DNA of 64,000 bases from Gammaproteobacteria bacterium (GCA_965221955.1 CBDCTA010000029.1:512001-576000); one strand, 5' to 3'. Shown: positions 8,904-52,617, numbered from the stretch's first letter. The notes: generated by a model from the letters alone, not told the origin. Numbers and translations are program-made.

Positions 8904-8919
8904 TGTGATGCAGTTCACA
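8904..8919. promoter_or_regulatory. CRP/Vfr/Clp-type binding site
   Basis: Perfect TGTGA-tgcagt-TCACA; about -41 from a minus-strand TATCGT -10 box (8878-8883). Confidence 0.7.
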
Positions 8920-18127: not shown

Positions 18128-18625
18128 GTGAAGTCATACGAACAATCTGAAGATGCGATAAGTGATGCTCAGTTAGCGCTAGAGCGTCGTGATCGTCGTG
18201 ATCGTCGCACACCTTCCTTGAAGGGATTTGTCTATGGCTTGTTTTTGGCCAGGCGTCGTGGCCCTCGACGTGCAGAAAATTTATATCAATATAGTGATTG
18301 GTACGATGTTAAGTTATTAGTGCTATCGCTTAGCTTATTATTGTTGTCGTGCTTAGATGCTGCGATGACAATGAAGTTGTTATCTTTGGGTGCGGTGGAA
18401 CTAAACCCAATCATGAACGAGTTGATCAATCAGGGCACACGTTATTTTATTTGGATTAAAATTGCTATTACTGCGTTGTGTGTCATCGTGCTCGTTGCTC
18501 ACAATCGTTTTAAGCTGTTTAATTTTTTACGTGTCGACGTAATTCTCATTACCGCAGTATTTATTTATCTAGGTTTGGTGACTTACGAGTTTTATCTGTA
18601 TACCTTGGGTATACCTGCAGTTTAA
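18128..18625 (+). CDS. Membrane protein with ERR/DRR repeats (DUF5658-like)
   Basis: ERRDRRDRR N-terminus, LD..MT..LL..GAVELNP.M motif, three TM helices. Confidence 0.75.
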   Translation: MKSYEQSEDAISDAQLALERRDRRDRRTPSLKGFVYGLFLARRRGPRRAENLYQYSDWYDVKLLVLSLSLLLLSCLDAAMTMKLLSLGAVELNPIMNELINQGTRYFIWIKIAITALCVIVLVAHNRFKLFNFLRVDVILITAVFIYLGLVTYEFYLYTLGIPAV

Positions 18626-18978
18626 TTAAGCGATCCAATTAAGCTTTCATTTGGGTCTTGACGGATCTTTTTTAATTCTCTTTTCCAGAGTTTTATATTT
18701 TTAGGGCTTACGCCTTTTTCTACACTGTCTAGCCATTGGTCATGGCAGTTCATGACGAGTTCTAATCCTTCGTCAGTGAAATCTGAAACCTTTATTTCTA
18801 GTGAATGCCAGTCTTCGACTGCTTTGGGTAGTTTGTTTTTATATAAGCTACTTTCAAGTAAAAAACCTAATAATGGCTCATATCTTGATTTGAACTTTTC
18901 AATCGCATCCAGCTTGGAAGCGTCATCCATTTCTTCGTATATGTACCATTTGCACGCATCAATCGTGAATTCTTTCAT
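18622..18978 (-). CDS. Hypothetical protein
   Basis: 118-aa ORF with AAGGA Shine-Dalgarno upstream; no recognisable motif. Confidence 0.65.
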   Translation of the reverse strand: MKEFTIDACKWYIYEEMDDASKLDAIEKFKSRYEPLLGFLLESSLYKNKLPKAVEDWHSLEIKVSDFTDEGLELVMNCHDQWLDSVEKGVSPKNIKLWKRELKKIRQDPNESLIGSLN

Positions 18979-19134
18979 TGAGCATCCTTTGGTTTAGAGT
19001 TCCATTATTATATTTCTAAAAAACGTATTGTTATTTAATATATCTTTTGCATACAAATGTTATGTAAGCATGTCATCTGGATTTATTTACCATTTATCCT
19101 AATTGTTAATATTATTTGGTTTGTATTTAATTTT

Positions 19135-19833
19135 TTACACTTTAACGATCACAGCATTAAAGTATTGTGCATATACCTCAAGCGCACGATCTTTTGCTAA
19201 ACCTAAATGATCGGCGAGTGCTAAATCCATGCCGCGAAAGTTAATGTCATAATCTTTTGTATTAGATTCACTTTTGACAAATAAGGGCGACTCTTTGTTA
19301 TGCAGCAAAAATATTTTCGCAATAGATTGTTCGATAGGTATATCTAGTGATATGTGTCGTAAATCTGAATAATGCTGTTTCGTATGTTCTCTTGCAGCAA
19401 TAGAGATATCATCAAAACGCGCAGCCAATGCATAAGCTTGTTTGCTATCTAACCAAGTTTCTATGTGTTTGCTTTGGAGTTCTAAAATTCTTTCTGCATG
19501 CACACTACCTAATTCGCTGATGGCGTAGACGAAAAAAATGTAAAGCTGATAAAGCTTTATTGCATTTGTGAAAGCAGGAACAAAAGATTTAGGTGTTTCG
19601 TGATCTTCTTGTACGGAGTAATTAAATGGGGTGATGTTTTTAAGTAATAAATCGAGTGGGTAAAATGCTACGCTTTCAATCGTTCTTACTTCGCTATCAA
19701 CATCAACGTTTTGATCAATGTGATATTCCTGTAGGCACAGGCGTGCACTAGATTTCCGATTCGCGACCTCATTAGCGGTGAGCCCCCAGAGGTCTGGAAA
19801 ATCGGTTGAATCGATGGGTAGTGATTGCCCCAA
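19135..19833 (-). CDS. Hypothetical protein
   Basis: 232-aa ORF, TTG start preceded by AGGAG. Confidence 0.7.
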   Translation of the reverse strand: MGQSLPIDSTDFPDLWGLTANEVANRKSSARLCLQEYHIDQNVDVDSEVRTIESVAFYPLDLLLKNITPFNYSVQEDHETPKSFVPAFTNAIKLYQLYIFFVYAISELGSVHAERILELQSKHIETWLDSKQAYALAARFDDISIAAREHTKQHYSDLRHISLDIPIEQSIAKIFLLHNKESPLFVKSESNTKDYDINFRGMDLALADHLGLAKDRALEVYAQYFNAVIVKV

Positions 19834-20021
19834 TGGGTGCTCCTAGCGTAAAGATTAGATACAAATACCTATCTTAAGGGGGCTTTCTAAAGGGGCTCTA
19901 CAAACTTGAGATCGCCCGTTGTAAAGCAACGATAGAAGGATATTTGCCTAATCTAAACCACTGACTTTTTAGTGATAATCCAATATTTTTAGTTAATATC
20001 GATTCAAATTGCTAGTAATAA

Positions 20022-20043
20022 AAATGTGATCTGGTTCGCAATT
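20022..20043. promoter_or_regulatory. CRP/Vfr/Clp-type binding site
   Basis: AAATGTGATCTGGTTCGCAATT versus consensus AAATGTGATCTAGATCACATTT (18/22). Confidence 0.65.
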
Positions 20044-20120
20044 CGCTTTTGTGTGTACAATAGCCATAATATTTAGCACGAGTAGTGCTGAACGACTAAG
20101 CCACAATAAGTAAAATAAAG

Positions 20121-20669
20121 ATGGGCGAATCAAAACAAATCATTTCTGCAGCGTTGCAAACTAATGCTAGTCAAGCATCAATGGCAAAAATAAAAAATGG
20201 CAAAAATGCTGATGAGCAATTAGCGGATGAAGTTAAAAAGCTAGACCAAATCCGTGACATGCTTTTTGGCGAACACGTCGCAGCTTTGCAAGACAAATAT
20301 CAAACACTAGATAAAAATCTTGATCAAAGCATATCTGTTTTGCGCGAAGAGCTTAATACCTCAATTGCAGACTTAAAAAAGCAGGTTGATAAGAGATTTG
20401 ATCAATTGCAAAAGAATTTTCAGGCTGAACAAGTCGATCGTGAGTCACAACATGAAGAGCTAAGCTCTAATCTCGCGTCAATTAATTCAGATATCCTCAC
20501 AAAGATCGATTTGGAAGCAAAAAGAATCGATCAAGCATTCGATGAACAGCAGCAGGAATCCACTCGACAAATGAATGAGATGGTTGATTCATTACAAAAT
20601 GCAAAAGTGGATCGTAAGTCTTTAGCTGCAATATTTAGCCAATTTGCTAAGGAGCTTGAAGGCTCGTAA
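20121..20669 (+). CDS. Coiled-coil protein of unknown function
   Basis: LDQIRDMLFGEH motif, long heptad pattern, C-terminal KVDRKSLAAIF. Confidence 0.85.
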   Translation: MGESKQIISAALQTNASQASMAKIKNGKNADEQLADEVKKLDQIRDMLFGEHVAALQDKYQTLDKNLDQSISVLREELNTSIADLKKQVDKRFDQLQKNFQAEQVDRESQHEELSSNLASINSDILTKIDLEAKRIDQAFDEQQQESTRQMNEMVDSLQNAKVDRKSLAAIFSQFAKELEGS

Positions 20670-20681
20670 GCGAGGTTGTAA

Positions 20682-22487
20682 ATGCCTTCGCATATGGCGA
20701 AAGTCATGTTGCATCAAAACGAAATTGACGGTGAAGTGAGTCTTGGATCAAGTATTGGTTCTGCAGATGATCCCAGTGATCTTGAGCAATTACGCAAATT
20801 ATTATTAGGAAGCGAATATCAAGATCTCTTGAAGCTACAACGTGAATTTTCTGATCATTCACATGCCAGTGAAAAAATCTCGCAAGTTATTTCAGAAGCG
20901 ATAGCAATTCGCTCAAAACAAGATGATTCAATATCAAATGCATTGGTTCCATCATTAGAAACAGCGATACGTGTTTCTGCAAAGCGTAACCCTAAGCGTT
21001 TAGCGAATGCACTGTTCCCTGTGATGGGTCCAGCCATACGTGAATCCGTTGCAGAAACGGTTGGTGCGATGATGCAGCAAGTGAATCAATTGTTAGAAAA
21101 TAGTCTAAGCGCACGTTCGATTAAGTGGCGTATTAACGCATTGCGCACCAATCGCTCTTTTGCGGAGGTGATGCTTTCTGAAACAGTGCTCTACCAAGTA
21201 GAGCAGGTGTTTTTAATTCACCGCGAAACAAGTTTACTCATCAATCACCTTACTTCTGCCAATGCAATTGTCAAAGATCCGGATATGGTGTCAAGTATGC
21301 TTACTGCTGTAACGGATTTTGTGAAAGATTCATTTGTAGTGGATAAGCAACAAAGTGTTAAGTCGATAAAATTTGGACAGCTGAATTTGCTATTCGAGGC
21401 TGGACCACACGCAATCATAGTTGCTGCAGTTCGAGGTTTGATTCCATCTGACTTGCAAATCACTTTGCGCGAGCAGGTGGAAGAGTTGCATCGTTTATAT
21501 GGTAGTCAATTAGAAGATTATGATGGGAATACTGAGCAGTTTCCTGATACGCATGAACAATTAGATAAATGTTTACTAAGTAAGAAAAAAGATGATGCGA
21601 TCAGATCGGTGAGTGAGAATAAAATACCATGGGCAGCCATAATAGCCTTGACTCTGTTAATTCTTTTGCCATTTGTTTGGTGGATATTGAATAAAATTGA
21701 ACAAAATAAATGGAATGAAATTGTTAATCAGTTACAGGCAGAATCTGGAATCGTCATACTGAGTCACCATAAACAGGATGGAGAGTACATTGTTAATGGT
21801 TTGCTTGACCCCTTAGCAAAAGACCCAATGGAGATTATTGCTGCTAAAGAAGATTTTACCAAGGCAGTGCAGCTACAAATGCAATCTTATTATTCTAATG
21901 AGGTGAAGATTGTAAATAAGCGTTTGCATAAAGTATTGAATCCACCCAGCACGGTAAGAACAATTTTTGCCAATGGCCTATTAACAATAGAAGGTGAAGC
22001 CAATCCATCTTGGGTTGCAAGTTTGCCCAATAAACTACCGTTTATCTGGGGAGTAGATCGTGTAGATACGAGCAAATTACGTAAAATTGAGGATATTCAG
22101 CAGAAAATACTGCAACTCATCGGTTCAATTGAGGGCGTTGTAATAGAATATTCCTCAAACTCCACAGCCTTGGCTACGAATGATTTAATATCTATCTCAA
22201 ATATGTTGGATGATATTAATGCGCTTCAGGTGTATACCGCTCAAGCAGGGCATGCGTTCAAACTTGGTATATTAGGATTTGCTGATAAATCAGGATCTGA
22301 TGCAGTAAACAATGAAATTAGTGAGCAGCGTGCAAGAGTAGTGCATGCCGAACTCGTAAAGCGAGGAGTAGCGGAAGATAGCTTGTTGGCTAAAGGTCTA
22401 GGGCGTTATATCAAGCAGGCTGATCAAAATAGAACGCACAACTGTATTACACAACGATGTGTCATATTTGAGGTCTATATAAATTAA
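20682..22487 (+). CDS. Membrane protein: helical N-terminus, longin/roadblock-like domain, TM helix, C-terminal OmpA-like domain
   Basis: VEQVFLIHRETSLL..DPDMVSSMLTAVTDFVKDSF; TM IPWAAIIALTLLILLPFVWW; GFADKSG...NNEISEQRA..V...L...GV OmpA_C motif. Confidence 0.8.
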   Translation: MPSHMAKVMLHQNEIDGEVSLGSSIGSADDPSDLEQLRKLLLGSEYQDLLKLQREFSDHSHASEKISQVISEAIAIRSKQDDSISNALVPSLETAIRVSAKRNPKRLANALFPVMGPAIRESVAETVGAMMQQVNQLLENSLSARSIKWRINALRTNRSFAEVMLSETVLYQVEQVFLIHRETSLLINHLTSANAIVKDPDMVSSMLTAVTDFVKDSFVVDKQQSVKSIKFGQLNLLFEAGPHAIIVAAVRGLIPSDLQITLREQVEELHRLYGSQLEDYDGNTEQFPDTHEQLDKCLLSKKKDDAIRSVSENKIPWAAIIALTLLILLPFVWWILNKIEQNKWNEIVNQLQAESGIVILSHHKQDGEYIVNGLLDPLAKDPMEIIAAKEDFTKAVQLQMQSYYSNEVKIVNKRLHKVLNPPSTVRTIFANGLLTIEGEANPSWVASLPNKLPFIWGVDRVDTSKLRKIEDIQQKILQLIGSIEGVVIEYSSNSTALATNDLISISNMLDDINALQVYTAQAGHAFKLGILGFADKSGSDAVNNEISEQRARVVHAELVKRGVAEDSLLAKGLGRYIKQADQNRTHNCITQRCVIFEVYIN

Positions 22488-22507
22488 GTTTTATCAAATT
22501 ACTTTGT

Positions 22508-24361
22508 ATGAGCAATTCTAATTTCGAAACATTAGTCTCTTTATACCGAAGACTTGGGATCGTTGTGTTCGAGCAACGACAAGATAAAAGTTTTTGGTTG
22601 ATCTCATCGAAACCCGAATGGTTTTCCATGTTAGCTGATTTGAGTAAAGATTCTAATCAGGGTCAAGTAAGTGCAATTAAATCTAATGCTCTGAATTCTT
22701 TTATTGAAGAAGATGTTCAAAAGATGTGGTCAACTGGGAAAGAGCGAAAAGTTTCTTCCATTTGGATTGAGGCAGATTCGAGCGAAAATAGTATGCCATT
22801 TCAAGCTACGGCTTTGCGCCAAGTAGATAGCATGTTGGTTATTGTTGAACATGTACCTAATGCATATGAGGCGAAACAGTCTCAAGCAAAGCAAATGCGT
22901 GAAAATGATATATTGAAAGGCTTATTAGAAGATAAAAAAGCAGAACAAGCACAAAAAATTGCATCCAGAGAGACCGAGCTTGAACAAGAAATTAGTGAAC
23001 GTCGCGCCTTAGAGAAACAGTTAACTCATTTAGCCTTTCACGATTCCTTGACGGGCTTGCCGAATAGATCCTTGTTTACTGATCGATTGCAAAGAGCGAT
23101 CGCAGAAGCAGAACGAAAAAAAGAATCAGTGGTGGTAATGTTCGTTGACCTGGATGATTTCAAAAAAGTGAATGATTCCTTCGGGCATCATGTGGGTGAC
23201 AAAGTGATTCAGGGTGCTGCTTTGCGTTTAAAGAAATGTTTGCGTGATATTGACTCCATTGCGCGCTTGGGTGGTGATGAATTTACGTTGTTAGTTCCAC
23301 ATATTGGTGAGCGTGAAGATATTGAAGTAATTGCGAGAAGGTTGATTGAATCTTTAGATGAGCCTATTGTTGCCGAGGGCAATGAGTTTCGTATGTCGAT
23401 CAGTATCGGTATTTCGGTATACCCCAATGACGCGAATAATGAAGACAGCTTGCTACGTAATGCTGATACTGCAATGTATTTTGCTAAACACACACGTGGG
23501 CCTAGTTTTAAATTTTATGAACAGGATATGGGCACATCGCCTTCAAAACGTTTGGCGTTGGTGTCTGATATTGAGCTCGCTTTACAGCAAAAAGAATTCT
23601 TCTTGGTATATCAGCCAATTATTGATGTTAGAAAAATGGAAGTTACAGGTGCGGAAGCCTTATTGCGTTGGCGCCGTTCTGATGGAGAAATTTTTGAGCC
23701 GGATAGATTTATACCCCTTGCATGTGAGTCCGATTTAATTATTAAAATTGGATTATGGGTGATTGAACAAAGTTGTACTCAACTTAGAAACTGGCGTGGC
23801 ATCTATGGTGATAAATTTAGAATGAATATTAATTTATCTGTGCGTGAACTAGAGTCTAATATATGTAAAGAAAAGTTGCATACGACCATGGATGCATTGA
23901 ATTTACCTCCAGGGTCTTTAGAGGTTGAAATTACAGACACAGTACCCATCGAAAATTCGAATATTATGCAAACCAATGTAGAGTTTCTAAAGAGCTTGCA
24001 TGTTTCTGCTGCAATTGATCGATTTGGAGAACGTCAAACTTCCTTAAAATCAATTAAAATACTTGGATTGAATGCTATAAAAATTGATCGCTACTTTGTA
24101 AATGGCATTGAGTCTGATCAAGATAGCCATGATGTTTTTAATGGTATTGTTCAATTAAGTTTGAGTTTATCTAAAAATGTTTTAGTTGAAGGCATAGAAA
24201 CAAAAGAGCAGTTAGATGTCATCCAAAGTATGGATGTAGATGAAGCGCAAGGCTTTTTCTTTACTCAACCTTTAGAGTCACACTTTTTTGATCAGTGGAT
24301 GAAAGAGTTTGATAAGAAACAGAAGACCCAGTTAAAAATCGTCAAGCAGAAGAAAGCTTAA
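22508..24361 (+). CDS. Diguanylate cyclase/EAL hybrid with uncharacterised N-terminal domain
   Basis: HDSLTGLPNR, DLDDFK.VND.FGH..GD, RDID I-site, GGDEF, EALLRW; DDFGTG replaced by DRFGER. Confidence 0.92.
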   Translation: MSNSNFETLVSLYRRLGIVVFEQRQDKSFWLISSKPEWFSMLADLSKDSNQGQVSAIKSNALNSFIEEDVQKMWSTGKERKVSSIWIEADSSENSMPFQATALRQVDSMLVIVEHVPNAYEAKQSQAKQMRENDILKGLLEDKKAEQAQKIASRETELEQEISERRALEKQLTHLAFHDSLTGLPNRSLFTDRLQRAIAEAERKKESVVVMFVDLDDFKKVNDSFGHHVGDKVIQGAALRLKKCLRDIDSIARLGGDEFTLLVPHIGEREDIEVIARRLIESLDEPIVAEGNEFRMSISIGISVYPNDANNEDSLLRNADTAMYFAKHTRGPSFKFYEQDMGTSPSKRLALVSDIELALQQKEFFLVYQPIIDVRKMEVTGAEALLRWRRSDGEIFEPDRFIPLACESDLIIKIGLWVIEQSCTQLRNWRGIYGDKFRMNINLSVRELESNICKEKLHTTMDALNLPPGSLEVEITDTVPIENSNIMQTNVEFLKSLHVSAAIDRFGERQTSLKSIKILGLNAIKIDRYFVNGIESDQDSHDVFNGIVQLSLSLSKNVLVEGIETKEQLDVIQSMDVDEAQGFFFTQPLESHFFDQWMKEFDKKQKTQLKIVKQKKA

Positions 24362-27288: not shown

Positions 27289-28776
27289 TCAGATCTTTTC
27301 GCCGTACTTCTGTTTATGTAATTTTTTAGATTGACTTACCCACTTATCTCGGTTGATACGATCAGGGAAGCTGCCCAGTGTTTCCGCTAACGCTGTGATG
27401 TCATCTTTTGTTAGGCGGCCTAACTGTTCATAGGAGTACACACCAAAGTCATTTAGTTTGCCTTCCATTACAGGGCCGATACCTTTTACAACCTGTAAAT
27501 CATCTTTTACTTTTGCAGCCGCAATTTTTAAGCCTTTTGCGGGTGCCTTTAATCCTGCTGCAGGTTTGTTAACTGTTTTTGGTTTAGCTTTTTTTGCAAC
27601 GGGTTTGGGTCGAGGAGACACCAGCTGAGTTTTAATTTTGTTTTTAAATGCCTCGATTGTATGTTCATGCTCACGCAACATTGATAAATCAAGCTTGGAT
27701 GACTGAAGCTCGCTTTCTAAAGTAGACATTTTAGTTTTATATTCCTGTACTACTGCAGCGCTTGAAGCTTGCGCGCGACTTTCAGCAGTGCGTAGTTGTT
27801 CACGTAAATCATCAATCACTGCGTCTTTTTCTTCACAAGTATCTACAAATACACGTTCTTTTTCGCTGGCCTCAAGTTTTACTTCATTGATCTGTTTGTA
27901 AGTACGGCCTAAAACTGTATTTTTAGATGTGCCAATTAACCGTACTTTATCCATGAAACGGTTAAATTTAGTGTCTTGGCCTGGCTGGTCACCTTCTAAT
28001 GGAGTTAGTTCATGCAAACGGTTACGAAGCTTGCCTAATTCATCCTGATTACGTGAATTCTGCTCTGCTAAATCTTTGTTGCGTAACCTCTGCAATTCGT
28101 CAATTTCTGCTTGAGATTTATTTTGTAATGCATATAAATCAGCTTTTGCCGCGCCAAGTTGTTTTTCTAACTCAGGGTTCAAATGCATGCGGTCTTGTTT
28201 CCATTTGCTTTGGATTTGGCTGATCATGGCATATAGACTTTTTGTATCATTCTCTGATGTGGTGACCTTGTCATTTAGGCTTTGTACTTTTTCGATCATC
28301 TCATCGAGTCGATATTTATAAGACTCTTGATCCGTTACGTGCTTATTAAGACGTTTAATTTTCAGGTTCGCATCAGCATGTAAATCTGAATAATGGCTAG
28401 CAAGATTTTCAAAATCATTACGTTCACTTAGTGTTTGTTGATACATGCTTTGAACTTTTTTAAGCCAAGTTTGATGCGCGGGTAATTGTTTAGCTTTTTC
28501 AAGTGAGGTTTGCCAGCGCGATGTCATCAACATTAGATCGCTACTTTGGCGGTCATATTTGGCTTGTATATCTCCACACTGAGTTTTGTAGGCAACGGTT
28601 TGTTCTTTGGAATCTTCTAATTCACGTGTCTGGAGATTAATTTTGTTTTCTAAATCTTCACGCAATGCATTCATATTACGATTACATGTCCAGCGGCTGA
28701 CAAGCCATCCAACCAATATTCCTAGTGCTGCGGCACCTAATAGGTAAACGAGTAACTCATTTAATAAATAGCTCAT
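27289..28776 (-). CDS. Membrane-anchored long coiled-coil protein with C-terminal helix-hairpin-helix domain
   Basis: N-terminal TM (LLGAAALGILVGWL), heptad region, K/A/P linker, DDL..VKGIGP..E.KL...GV..Y.QL...RINRD.WV.Q. Confidence 0.85.
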   Translation of the reverse strand: MSYLLNELLVYLLGAAALGILVGWLVSRWTCNRNMNALREDLENKINLQTRELEDSKEQTVAYKTQCGDIQAKYDRQSSDLMLMTSRWQTSLEKAKQLPAHQTWLKKVQSMYQQTLSERNDFENLASHYSDLHADANLKIKRLNKHVTDQESYKYRLDEMIEKVQSLNDKVTTSENDTKSLYAMISQIQSKWKQDRMHLNPELEKQLGAAKADLYALQNKSQAEIDELQRLRNKDLAEQNSRNQDELGKLRNRLHELTPLEGDQPGQDTKFNRFMDKVRLIGTSKNTVLGRTYKQINEVKLEASEKERVFVDTCEEKDAVIDDLREQLRTAESRAQASSAAVVQEYKTKMSTLESELQSSKLDLSMLREHEHTIEAFKNKIKTQLVSPRPKPVAKKAKPKTVNKPAAGLKAPAKGLKIAAAKVKDDLQVVKGIGPVMEGKLNDFGVYSYEQLGRLTKDDITALAETLGSFPDRINRDKWVSQSKKLHKQKYGEKI

Positions 28777-51207: not shown

Positions 51208-52617
51208 ATGAAACCTGTCATTGCACTAGTGGGTCGCCCCAATGTTGGTAAATCAACTTTATTTAATTATCTCACCAAATCTAATCGAGCATTAGTTGCA
51301 GACCAACCAGGTCTCACGCGTGATCGTATTTACGGTATAACTCGGCGTTTCGATGATCGTTACATCGTAATTGATACCGGCGGGATTGCACCGCCAGATG
51401 ATTCCAAAGATCAAGACAGAATGAATCTTGCGATTAGCAACCAAGCATGGATGGCAATTGAAGAGGCGGACTTTGTTTGTTTTCTTGTGGACGGTACGGA
51501 AGGTTTAGTGCCTCAAGATGAAGAAGTATTTTCTAAGCTTAGATCGGCAAATAAGAAAACCGTAGTTTTGGTGAACAAGGCCGATGCCGGTGCGCATAAT
51601 ATGCTGTCTAGTGATTTTTATTCGCTTGGCGCAGAGCAAGTCTATGAGATTTCAGCCAAATCTGGGAAGGGTGTAAGAGACGTATTCAGTAAATTAGATG
51701 AGCAAATTCCGCCTATAGAGGAAGTTGCTGAAGAAGAAGGTGAAGCAAAAGTAATTAAAGTTGCTTTGGTGGGTCGTCCAAATGTAGGGAAATCAACCTT
51801 AGCGAATGCATTGATAGGAGAAGAGCGTTTTGTTACTTCCAATATTCCTGGTACCACACGCGATAGTATTTCGGTGCGCATCGAAAAATTTGGAACACAG
51901 TTTGAGTTAATTGATACTGCAGGTGTTCGTCGACGCAGTAAAGTGCAGGACATGGTAGAAAAATTCAGTGTCGTAAAAACCATTCAAGCCATAGAGGATG
52001 CACACGTTGTTATTTTAATGTTAGATGGCACACAAGAGTTTGCGGAACAAGATGCAAGGTTAGCAGGCATGGTATTAGAAAGTGGGCGTGCAGTAGTGGT
52101 GGCAATAAATAAAACTGACATCAGTTCTAACGAAGATCGCAAGGAGATTCAAAAGGGCTTTGATCTGAAATTACGCTTTTTAGAATATGCAGAAAAGTTG
52201 TTTATTTCAGCTAAAAACAAAGAAGGTGTGACTAAATTACTACGTGCCGCTGTGCGGGCATACAAGTCTGCAAATATAGAAGTGAGTACTGCAGAAATAA
52301 ACCGAATATTAGAAAATGCTCTTGAAAGCTTTCAGCCGCCATTAGTGCGAGGGCGAAGAATTAAACTGAAATATGCAGCGCAAGTAGGCACGAATCCGCC
52401 TACGATTGCTATTCATGGTAATCAAATCGGCAGAATCCCGGGCTCTTATAAGCGCTATCTTGAAAACTACTTTCGCAAAACATTAAAACTAGTCGGCACA
52501 CCAATTTTATTAGTATTCAAACAGCCTGATAACCCTTATGCAGGTAAACGCAATAAACTCACACCAAGACAAGAACGTTCTAGAAAACGCATGCTGAAAA
52601 AAGTGAAGCGTAATTGA
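51208..52617 (+). CDS. der: Ribosome biogenesis GTPase Der
   Basis: Two GRPNVGKS P-loops, PG.TRD, DTGG/DTAG, KH-like C-terminus. Confidence 0.98.
   Translation: MKPVIALVGRPNVGKSTLFNYLTKSNRALVADQPGLTRDRIYGITRRFDDRYIVIDTGGIAPPDDSKDQDRMNLAISNQAWMAIEEADFVCFLVDGTEGLVPQDEEVFSKLRSANKKTVVLVNKADAGAHNMLSSDFYSLGAEQVYEISAKSGKGVRDVFSKLDEQIPPIEEVAEEEGEAKVIKVALVGRPNVGKSTLANALIGEERFVTSNIPGTTRDSISVRIEKFGTQFELIDTAGVRRRSKVQDMVEKFSVVKTIQAIEDAHVVILMLDGTQEFAEQDARLAGMVLESGRAVVVAINKTDISSNEDRKEIQKGFDLKLRFLEYAEKLFISAKNKEGVTKLLRAAVRAYKSANIEVSTAEINRILENALESFQPPLVRGRRIKLKYAAQVGTNPPTIAIHGNQIGRIPGSYKRYLENYFRKTLKLVGTPILLVFKQPDNPYAGKRNKLTPRQERSRKRMLKKVKRN

Follow-up and report, generated by a model that had tools for sequence, protein, structure and literature searches.

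Within a stretch of 64,000 nucleotides from a Gammaproteobacteria bacterium (GCA_965221955.1 CBDCTA010000029.1:512001-576000), hereafter the window, three adjacent genes (genes 1 to 3) encode a coiled-coil protein, a membrane protein with an OmpA-like end and a protein with GGDEF and EAL domains. We regard it as probable, with moderate confidence, that they form one transcription unit and constitute a derivative of the Group 1 Rup GTPase module which is devoid of the GTPase, acts through cyclic di-GMP (c-di-GMP) and follows the signalling route proposed below. What is new is the longin-type fold predicted for the membrane partner of the module and, judging from sequence comparison, a natural GTPase-less variant with a cyclase-type output. 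The latter sets a clade composed of the window and four further loci (L001-L004, Thiotrichales-like) apart from the module as described so far. The three open reading frames (ORFs), called across the window, all lie on the + strand with intergenic gaps of 12 and 20 bp, as the preliminary description of this region had it, and a consensus scan found no terminator-like sites between them.

The four-gene neighbourhood of the Group 1 Rup GTPases was described computationally by Wuichet and Sogaard-Andersen in 2014 (PMC4316618), and the preliminary description was therefore mistaken in calling the system undescribed, although the available text of that paper contains neither a fold assignment nor experiments. 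According to it, the neighbourhood comprises a coiled-coil protein, a protein in which an unknown domain is followed by a membrane helix and an OmpA domain, a GTPase without the G3 glutamine, and an output protein. The last is typically a GGDEF/EAL protein or a histidine kinase whose N-terminal region holds an invariant glutamine, which the authors speculate is supplied in trans to the GTPase. In the same text, the gene 2-type domain is left as one of unknown function, no pairing of Rup GTPases with homologues of MglB is predicted, and the Group 1 Rup proteins are the prokaryotic GTPases closest to the eukaryotic Rab, Ran, Ras and Rho; the legend of Table S2 names two unknown proteins DUFX and DUFY. 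No experiments, fold assignment or later work on the module were found in the accessible literature, a coverage that stops short of subscription journals, while a 2026 preprint, as far as its accessible part goes, treats profilin-longin-like domains with GTPases in other systems.

Compared with this description, the window holds the same three non-GTPase families in the same order. Gene 1 corresponds to the coiled-coil protein and gene 2 to the protein with the unknown domain, helix and OmpA part, and gene 3 carries the output proteins' N-terminal region (hereafter the input domain), with a Lys in the invariant Gln column. A Ras-superfamily GTPase lacking the G3 glutamine is found neither in the 20 bp between genes 2 and 3 nor in the 64 kb window. 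The absence of a Rup GTPase and the replacement of Gln by Lys thus distinguish the window from the published module, as does the gene 2 domain, for which a longin/roadblock fold is now modelled.

The module was surveyed on a broader scale through a genome scan, which returned at least 573 gene 2 relatives among at least 585 pattern matches. The best 80 loci were kept, so that the sample represents the closest relatives and not a random draw, and a six-frame census with hidden Markov models (HMMs) was carried out over 81 loci, window included. These derive from Thiotrichales-type gammaproteobacteria, Acidobacteriota, Nostocales, Thermodesulfobacteriota, Verrucomicrobiota, Mariprofundaceae and others. 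A gene 1 homologue is located directly upstream of the gene 2 homologue in 80 of the 81 loci, the exception (L007) having 411 nt of contig upstream. Downstream of gene 2, a gene for a Ras-family GTPase of about 165 aa was found in 71 loci and the input domain of gene 3 in 65, all three partners being present in 59. Two expectations voiced beforehand, that the three genes would occur together in other genomes and that similar operons would include a Ras-like GTPase absent here, are borne out by these counts. The GTPases of the relatives match Pfam Ras with E values of 1e-30 to 1e-34 and carry DxxGE in place of the DxxGQ of Ras (55 sequences), in agreement with the published account of these proteins.

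Ten loci have no GTPase gene. Four of them (L045, L064, L070 and L080) end 219-1385 nt past the longin domain and are not assessable, leaving the window, L001-L004 and L063 as those with room for the gene. L063, from a metagenome-assembled genome labelled as Deltaproteobacteria, is the sole locus outside the clade of the window which has the room and yet lacks both the GTPase and an input-domain gene; it may represent a second independent loss.

When 55 GTPase queries were searched against the window and against 10-14 kb of L001-L004, nothing better than E 0.004 was obtained. A weak GTPase similarity at 51208-52617 of the window corresponds to Der/EngA (MMR_HSR1 twice, plus a KH_dom-like domain) and not to a Rup GTPase. 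In a quick maximum-likelihood tree of 69 of the 73 gene 2 ORFs, from which four outside the range of 500-700 aa were dropped, the five GTPase-less sequences form one clade with a long stem (0.74) and a support of 100 in the Shimodaira-Hasegawa-like approximate likelihood ratio test. This clade is nested in a larger one of 15 (support 98), whose other ten members are accompanied by the GTPase. Mapped onto the tree, the presence of the GTPase requires two changes, a number as low as this being reached in none of 500 shuffles, and with a midpoint root the pattern reads as one secondary loss of the adjacent GTPase gene.

The output proteins of the clade are also uniform, since all five feature RDID-x5-GGDEF, EAL, DRFG and EITD, and the same holds for four of four further clade proteins. 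By comparison, five representatives from other clades in which the input domain is joined to GGDEF-EAL have DDFG and E[IL]TE, keep the Gln and lack RxxD altogether, and in three of the five the GGDEF motif is absent; the nearest GTPase-bearing kin have HD-GYP outputs. In the light of general knowledge of these motifs, the output of the clade looks to have turned from c-di-GMP degradation to synthesis.

Gene 3 itself is composed of an N-terminal region of 160 residues without a named family in Pfam or NCBIfam, as had been noted from the sequence, followed by a GGDEF (176-329) and an EAL domain (354-588) according to Pfam. An active GGDEF domain is defined by a GG[DE]EF motif, with an RxxD inhibition site (I-site) five residues upstream. 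Both are found in gene 3 (RDIDSIARLGGDEF at 246-259), and the protein, with GGDEF motif and I-site intact, is predicted to be a diguanylate cyclase. The catalytic set of an active EAL domain consists of EAL, N, E-x-x-E, DDFG, K, E and Q. Of this, gene 3 retains EAL, NLS, KID, EGIE and QGF, but DDFG is replaced by DRFG and EITE by EITD, so that the full set is not present; because a metal-binding Asp is lost, the domain is more likely regulatory or weak. The best solved relative of the catalytic half is MorA (4rnh; E 1.2e-93 over residues 171-594), which differs from gene 3 in having DDFG and ELTE where gene 3 has DRFG and EITD, and in an unrelated N-terminal input domain.

An alignment of the input-domain family was built from 39 of its 49 first matches, ten with long extensions being left out, and the domain of the window matches the resulting HMM with E 1.1e-39. 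The column occupied by the invariant glutamine holds Gln in 35 of the 39 sequences and Lys in the remaining four, which are the window and L001-L003; in the window, a Gln occurs one residue further on. Across the 81 loci, 58 neighbour proteins were matched by the HMM, and Pfam assigned 23 of them to hybrid histidine kinases, 11 to plain histidine kinases and 11 to the HD-GYP type (HD_5). The rest are five GGDEF-EAL proteins, all of the window clade (L002 and L003 being counted by orthology and motifs and not by the Pfam scan), one GAF kinase and seven short proteins without a further domain. On the scale of 1.84 billion representatives, the input-domain profile matched 1313 proteins at E <= 0.001, of which 1078 reached E <= 1e-10. 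Output domains were scanned in 68 of the 150 representatives listed, revealing about 41 kinase-type proteins, five GGDEF-EAL, four HD-GYP, two with PAS or GAF only, one Ser/Thr kinase, one SpoIIE phosphatase and one REC-Hpt protein, while 13 had no named domain. Since it is fused to so many outputs, the input domain is a promiscuous input module specific to this system, and the variability of outputs on one N-terminal domain agrees with what had been anticipated. Searches of language-model atlases returned unnamed clusters, except for a match of the input domain to HNOBA (0.88), which is under the level at which the tool gives more than a lead.

A further domain family without a name, about 130 aa in length, is encoded 3' of the GTPase in 20 loci and has no member in the window. 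It occurs on its own in Nostocales, or fused to PAS or adenylate/guanylate cyclase domains; examples are found at L028:8206-8607 and in L036, L069, L071, L077, L061, L072, L078 and L079, and fused forms at L046:8230-9108, L055:5853-6875 and L062:2799-3818. It precedes the gene-3-type input domain within a fusion in 17 of 21 library representatives tested. Profile-profile comparison of this domain, the input domain and the longin domain of gene 2 disclosed no similarity among the three.

Relatives of gene 2 number more than 1500 among 8000 scored candidates and bear names no better than "OmpA family protein". Only one stretch of gene 2, residues 316-338, is strongly hydrophobic, no such stretch occurring in genes 1 and 3, and Pfam OmpA is matched in gene 2 at residues 527-585 with 32.5 bits against a curated cut-off of 27.2; the order of cytoplasmic domain, transmembrane segment and OmpA-type end proposed in the preliminary description is thus upheld. 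The protein is probably oriented with its N-terminus inside and its C-terminus outside, given the absence of a signal peptide, the Lys-rich sequence ahead of the helix and the need for the OmpA domain to reach the wall. The conserved Asp and Arg of the pattern GxTDxxGxxxxNxxLSxxRA have a role in peptidoglycan binding. Both are kept in gene 2, where G532, D535, N543 and R550 are invariant among 16 sequences, and together with the match to the Pal/OmpA fold they suggest that this domain anchors the protein to peptidoglycan.

An AlphaFold2 (AF2) model of the full-length protein, built with 16 sequences, reached a predicted local distance difference test (pLDDT) value of 72.1 and a predicted template modelling score (pTM) of 0.36. 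It consists of low-confidence N-terminal helices, an a-bb-a-bbb-a arrangement covering residues 160-278, a long helix spanning the hydrophobic region, a confident periplasmic alpha/beta part and the OmpA-like end. Searched with Foldseek, it recovered Pal/OmpA-type domains only (best 4g4v, E 2.4e-7, template modelling (TM) score on target 0.77), for which reason a domain-only model was needed. Residues 140-300 were therefore aligned with 72 homologous segments from the loci of the relatives, and the model obtained (pLDDT 82.8, pTM 0.72) repeats the order a-bb-a-bbb-a, the strands and helices after the first helix being E32-41, E47-52, H61-78, E89-92, E95-101, E105-113 and H117-139. It presents the five-stranded antiparallel sheet with flanking helices of the longin/roadblock fold, bb-a-bbb-a(-a).

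Against the PDB, Foldseek gave 18 matches of this model at E <= 0.001 and, among the matches listed, all are longin/roadblock proteins or complexes containing them. They include the sigma and mu N-terminal domains of AP-1, AP-2 and AP-3, GATOR1 and Rag C-terminal domains, TRAPP subunits, SRX and Ragulator, as well as Mon1-Ccz1 (5ldd, E 1.8e-4), 9ddt (TM score 0.67) and the longin domain of Sec22b (1ifq; TM score 0.63 on query and 0.78 on target, root-mean-square deviation 2.7). MglB (1j3w, 3t12) was matched with E 2.9e-3 and TM scores on target of 0.48-0.49, and an Asgard roadblock was also present. The cytoplasmic domain of gene 2 is thus confidently predicted to adopt a longin/roadblock fold, nearer to longins than to MglB, and the fold suggested in the preliminary description is sustained by the model. 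No such relationship appears in sequence searches: apart from a sub-threshold match to Snf7, residues 1-480 matched nothing in Pfam at E <= 0.1, the Robl_LC7 profile included, and a 73-sequence profile of the domain retrieved only chance-level matches among PDB sequences (best E 0.15). By its modelled fold and the adjacency of a GTPase gene in relatives, the domain may be a GTPase-binding platform.

Between the helix and the OmpA-like domain, the periplasmic alpha/beta unit is duplicated in three gene 2 relatives of 648-812 aa (P0093, P0050 and P0070), a feature suggestive of a modular sensor or spacer in the periplasm.

The similarity of the C-terminal domain to models of Pal, OmpA, YfiB and MotB would fit a purely structural role, in which genes 1 and 2 form a Pal- or MotB-type tether without signalling and gene 3, an independent enzyme of c-di-GMP metabolism, happens to lie next door. 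We consider this very unlikely. The N-terminal domain of gene 3 is specific to the module and is found downstream, on varied outputs, in 65 of the 81 loci; the gaps between the genes are just 12 and 20 bp; and the membrane helix of gene 2 has no Asp, nor is there a MotA-like partner.

Gene 1 has no hydrophobic segment on the Kyte-Doolittle scale and only sub-threshold coiled-coil matches among the named families of Pfam, NCBIfam and PADLOC. Its N-terminal motif and that of gene 2, reported in the preliminary description at the coordinates given in Table 1, are both conserved in their families. R45 and G50 are invariant among 59 gene-1 homologues, and the L/R of the gene 2 motif are nearly invariant among 73 gene-2 homologues. 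Profile-profile alignment with hhalign pairs exactly these two motifs over 29 columns (P 0.0022), with a probability of only 12.9%, and a short HMM built on the motif of gene 1 matched three of the 73 gene 2 proteins, one of them a true fusion and one a frame artefact. The resemblance is real but short, and is not proof of homology or co-assembly. In one Acidobacteriota locus (L049:5365-7767), genes 1 and 2 are joined in frame into a protein of 800 aa, although a sequencing error is possible; taken as it stands, this single fusion supports the two proteins working together.

Gene 1 also has weak matches to the tail of ZorA (PADLOC and NCBIfam; E 1.5e-4, 18.6 bits), and the OmpA part of gene 2 matches ZorB with E 0.002, which raises the prospect of a Zorya-type anti-phage defence system made up of a peptidoglycan-anchored MotB-like protein and a coiled-coil tail. 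This is extremely improbable, and neither Zorya (ZorAB) nor another defence system was retained as a candidate. The scores fall far under the cut-offs (16 bits against 250 in NCBIfam) and the matches are confined to the coiled-coil and OmpA parts. Moreover, gene 1 contains no membrane domain of the MotA-like kind, no ZorC/D-type effector is present, and the neighbours, such as ispG, are housekeeping genes.

Taken together, these features lead us to propose the following route. A change in the wall or envelope would be relayed by the one transmembrane helix of gene 2, whose periplasmic part would report the state of the wall. The signal would reach the cytoplasmic longin platform, held together with gene 1, and the platform would engage the input domain of gene 3, joined by a helix to GGDEF-EAL, and thereby set the activity of the diguanylate cyclase. 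In relatives, the Ras-like GTPase without the catalytic Gln would stand between platform and output; because this switch was lost in the lineage of the window, the platform may here talk directly to the output.

Several observations weigh against this proposal. The profile of the input domain had only chance-level matches among PDB sequences (best E 0.84) and none in Pfam, and the reading of the EAL domain as weak draws on the catalytic residues known for EAL domains and one alignment with MorA. Furthermore, the longin domain of the clade keeps 42 of the 49 positions that are conserved at >=85% among 66 GTPase-linked homologues, the seven changes being mostly conservative, and L004 retains Gln at the input-domain column. 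Such constraint after the loss is also compatible with a GTPase gene at another place in the genome, that is, a canonical GTPase-dependent module whose rup gene has moved outside the 64 kb window. The presence of all family-invariant residues in gene 2 favours the same explanation, which we nevertheless judge unlikely. The GTPase is adjacent in 71 of the 77 assessable loci and absent in five of the five members of the clade, with none detected in the window or in 10-14 kb of L001-L004. Moreover, four of the five have Lys instead of the Gln that is linked to the GTPase in the published model, and the clade arises on a long stem branch. A complex prediction for residues 25-310 of gene 2 (16 rows) and 1-140 of gene 3 (39 rows), run without controls, scored 0.00 against a mark of 0.32 and counts neither way.

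The GTPase-less derivative of the Rup module proposed here resembles several known systems in part. MglA-MglB of Myxococcus and Thermus and the actinobacterial conservon CvnA-D/Mfp likewise combine a small Ras-like GTPase with a roadblock-fold partner, the conservon also including a histidine kinase. However, MglB and CvnB are small soluble proteins whose GTPases belong to the MglA family, whereas the platform of gene 2 forms one protein with a membrane helix and a peptidoglycan anchor, has no GTPase, and aligns better with a longin (TM score on target 0.78) than with MglB (0.48). The best structural matches of gene 2 are the eukaryotic longin platforms (Mon1-Ccz1, TRAPP, AP sigma/mu, GATOR1, SRX and Sec22b), with which it shares the predicted fold; it differs from them in the lack of sequence similarity, in additional helices at the N-terminus, in its bacterial membrane anchor and in the absence of a vesicle-traffic context. 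In YfiBNR, as here, a peptidoglycan-binding OmpA-like protein is tied to c-di-GMP synthesis (YfiN/DgcN), and YfiB chains match the C-terminus of gene 2. YfiB is an outer-membrane lipoprotein which acts via the periplasmic YfiR on a membrane cyclase; in the window, by contrast, it is the inner membrane that the anchor crosses, and the cyclase, which has another input domain, is located in the cytoplasm.

The coordinates of the genes and of their features are collected in Table 1. The database copy of gene 2 has 597 aa as opposed to 601 aa, which is why its start possibly lies 12 nt after 20682 (ATG); GAGG is found 6 nt 5' of 20682. On the far side of the operon, ispG is convergent to gene 3 and lies 11 bp beyond its end.

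Table 1. Position of the three genes, their domains and motifs, and the upstream elements in the window
Feature	Position	Strand	Basis
DUF5658, upstream small gene	18128-18625	+	
ORF without family, upstream small gene	18622-18978	-	
ORF without family, upstream small gene divergent from gene 1	19135-19833	-	
CRP-like box TGTGATCTGGTTCGCA	20025..20040	+	Pattern match
Conserved upstream block TTTTGTGTGTACAATA, including TACAAT at 20056-20061; candidate -10 region	20047..20062	+	Five-region alignment
Gene 1, 182 aa, predicted soluble coiled-coil partner without a named family	20121..20669	+	
Gene 1 N-terminal motif LDQIRDMLFGEH, L41-H52; family consensus NLDKIRDILFG-Q	20241..20276	+	
Gene 2, predicted bitopic inner-membrane anchor, 601 aa	20682..22487	+	
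Gene 2 N-terminal motif LEQLRKLLLGSE, L34-E45; family consensus L-ELR-LLLGPE	20781..20816	+	
Gene 2, predicted cytoplasmic longin/roadblock-fold domain, residues ~160-280	21159..21521	+	AF2 domain model and Foldseek
Gene 2, transmembrane helix, residues 316-338	21627..21695	+	Kyte-Doolittle 19-mer maximum 2.58; model helix 317-353
Gene 2, periplasmic alpha/beta repeats, residues ~356-470, unnamed	21747..22091	+	Model secondary structure, pLDDT ~90
Gene 2, OmpA-like peptidoglycan-binding domain, residues ~487-600	22140..22481	+	Pfam and Foldseek
Gene 3, predicted cytoplasmic GGDEF-EAL protein, 617 aa	22508..24361	+	
Gene 3, residues 1-135, N-terminal input domain of an unnamed family	22508..22912	+	Family HMM
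Gene 3, K128 at the invariant Gln column of relatives	22889-22891	+	39-sequence alignment
Gene 3, GGDEF domain, RDID-x5-GGDEF (R246-F259)	23033..23494	+	Pfam E 2.4e-51
Gene 3, EAL domain, EAL at 383-385; D504-R505 instead of DDFG; EITD instead of EITE	23567..24271	+	Pfam E 9.9e-58

Upstream of gene 1, a consensus scan of the + strand detected no sigma-70-type site. The pattern TGTGA-N6-TCRCA has three matches (two sites) in the window against 0.22 expected, a count reached in none of 100 shuffles, and the CRP-like box ahead of gene 1, which agrees with nine of the ten consensus positions, exists as the preliminary description had claimed. Its TGTGA half, however, is kept in none of the four orthologous upstream regions (L001-L004), so that control by CRP is unsupported and the function of the box doubtful. 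The best conserved stretch across the five orthologous regions is instead the block TTTTGyGTGTACAATA, 7 nt 3' of the box, whose TACAAT may be the -10 region of a promoter. Another CRP-type site, at 8904-8919 of the window, is a perfect palindrome (TGTGATGCAGTTCACA) and better than the box at 20025-20040.

Further upstream, in the interval separating gene 1 from the divergent gene at 19135-19833, all five orthologous regions share a conserved block of some 45 nt (19905-19950); this could form a small hairpin of eight pairs, two with compensatory changes (-4.9 kcal/mol), and a search of the upstream region including this block against Rfam gave no match. The three small upstream genes (18128-19833) are syntenic in L001-L004 and not in distant loci. 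Elsewhere in the window, the - strand encodes a protein of 495 aa (27289-28776) whose N-terminus is hydrophobic and which contains a long coiled coil; the last 100 aa or so of the protein resemble C-terminal extensions of some NuoE, L21 and S2 proteins and of the phasin PhaH, with NCBIfam matches of E 3e-16 to 3e-9 that are far under the cut-offs.

An operon whose membrane protein is plainly annotated as an "OmpA family protein" therefore belongs to a Ras-type signalling module that has been described (PMC4316618) and, as far as the accessible literature goes, not studied experimentally. The predicted longin-type fold of its constant membrane partner offers a concrete hypothesis for the regulator of the Group 1 Rup GTPases and ties the module to the longin-GTPase pairing of eukaryotes. 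If the prediction is true, the partner of the bacterial GTPases closest to Rab, Ras, Rho and Ran shares a fold with the eukaryotic exchange factors of Rab and Rag. Speculatively, and more as a possibility than an expectation, the longin-GTPase partnership arose in bacteria as a wall-anchored device and may have reached eukaryotes together with the GTPase, while platform and input domain work GTPase-free in the clade of the window. This clade would in that case be a natural experiment on what the GTPase contributes; with its altered Gln and changed output, it is in any event a simple comparative system for the role of the switch and for the coupling of wall state to c-di-GMP.

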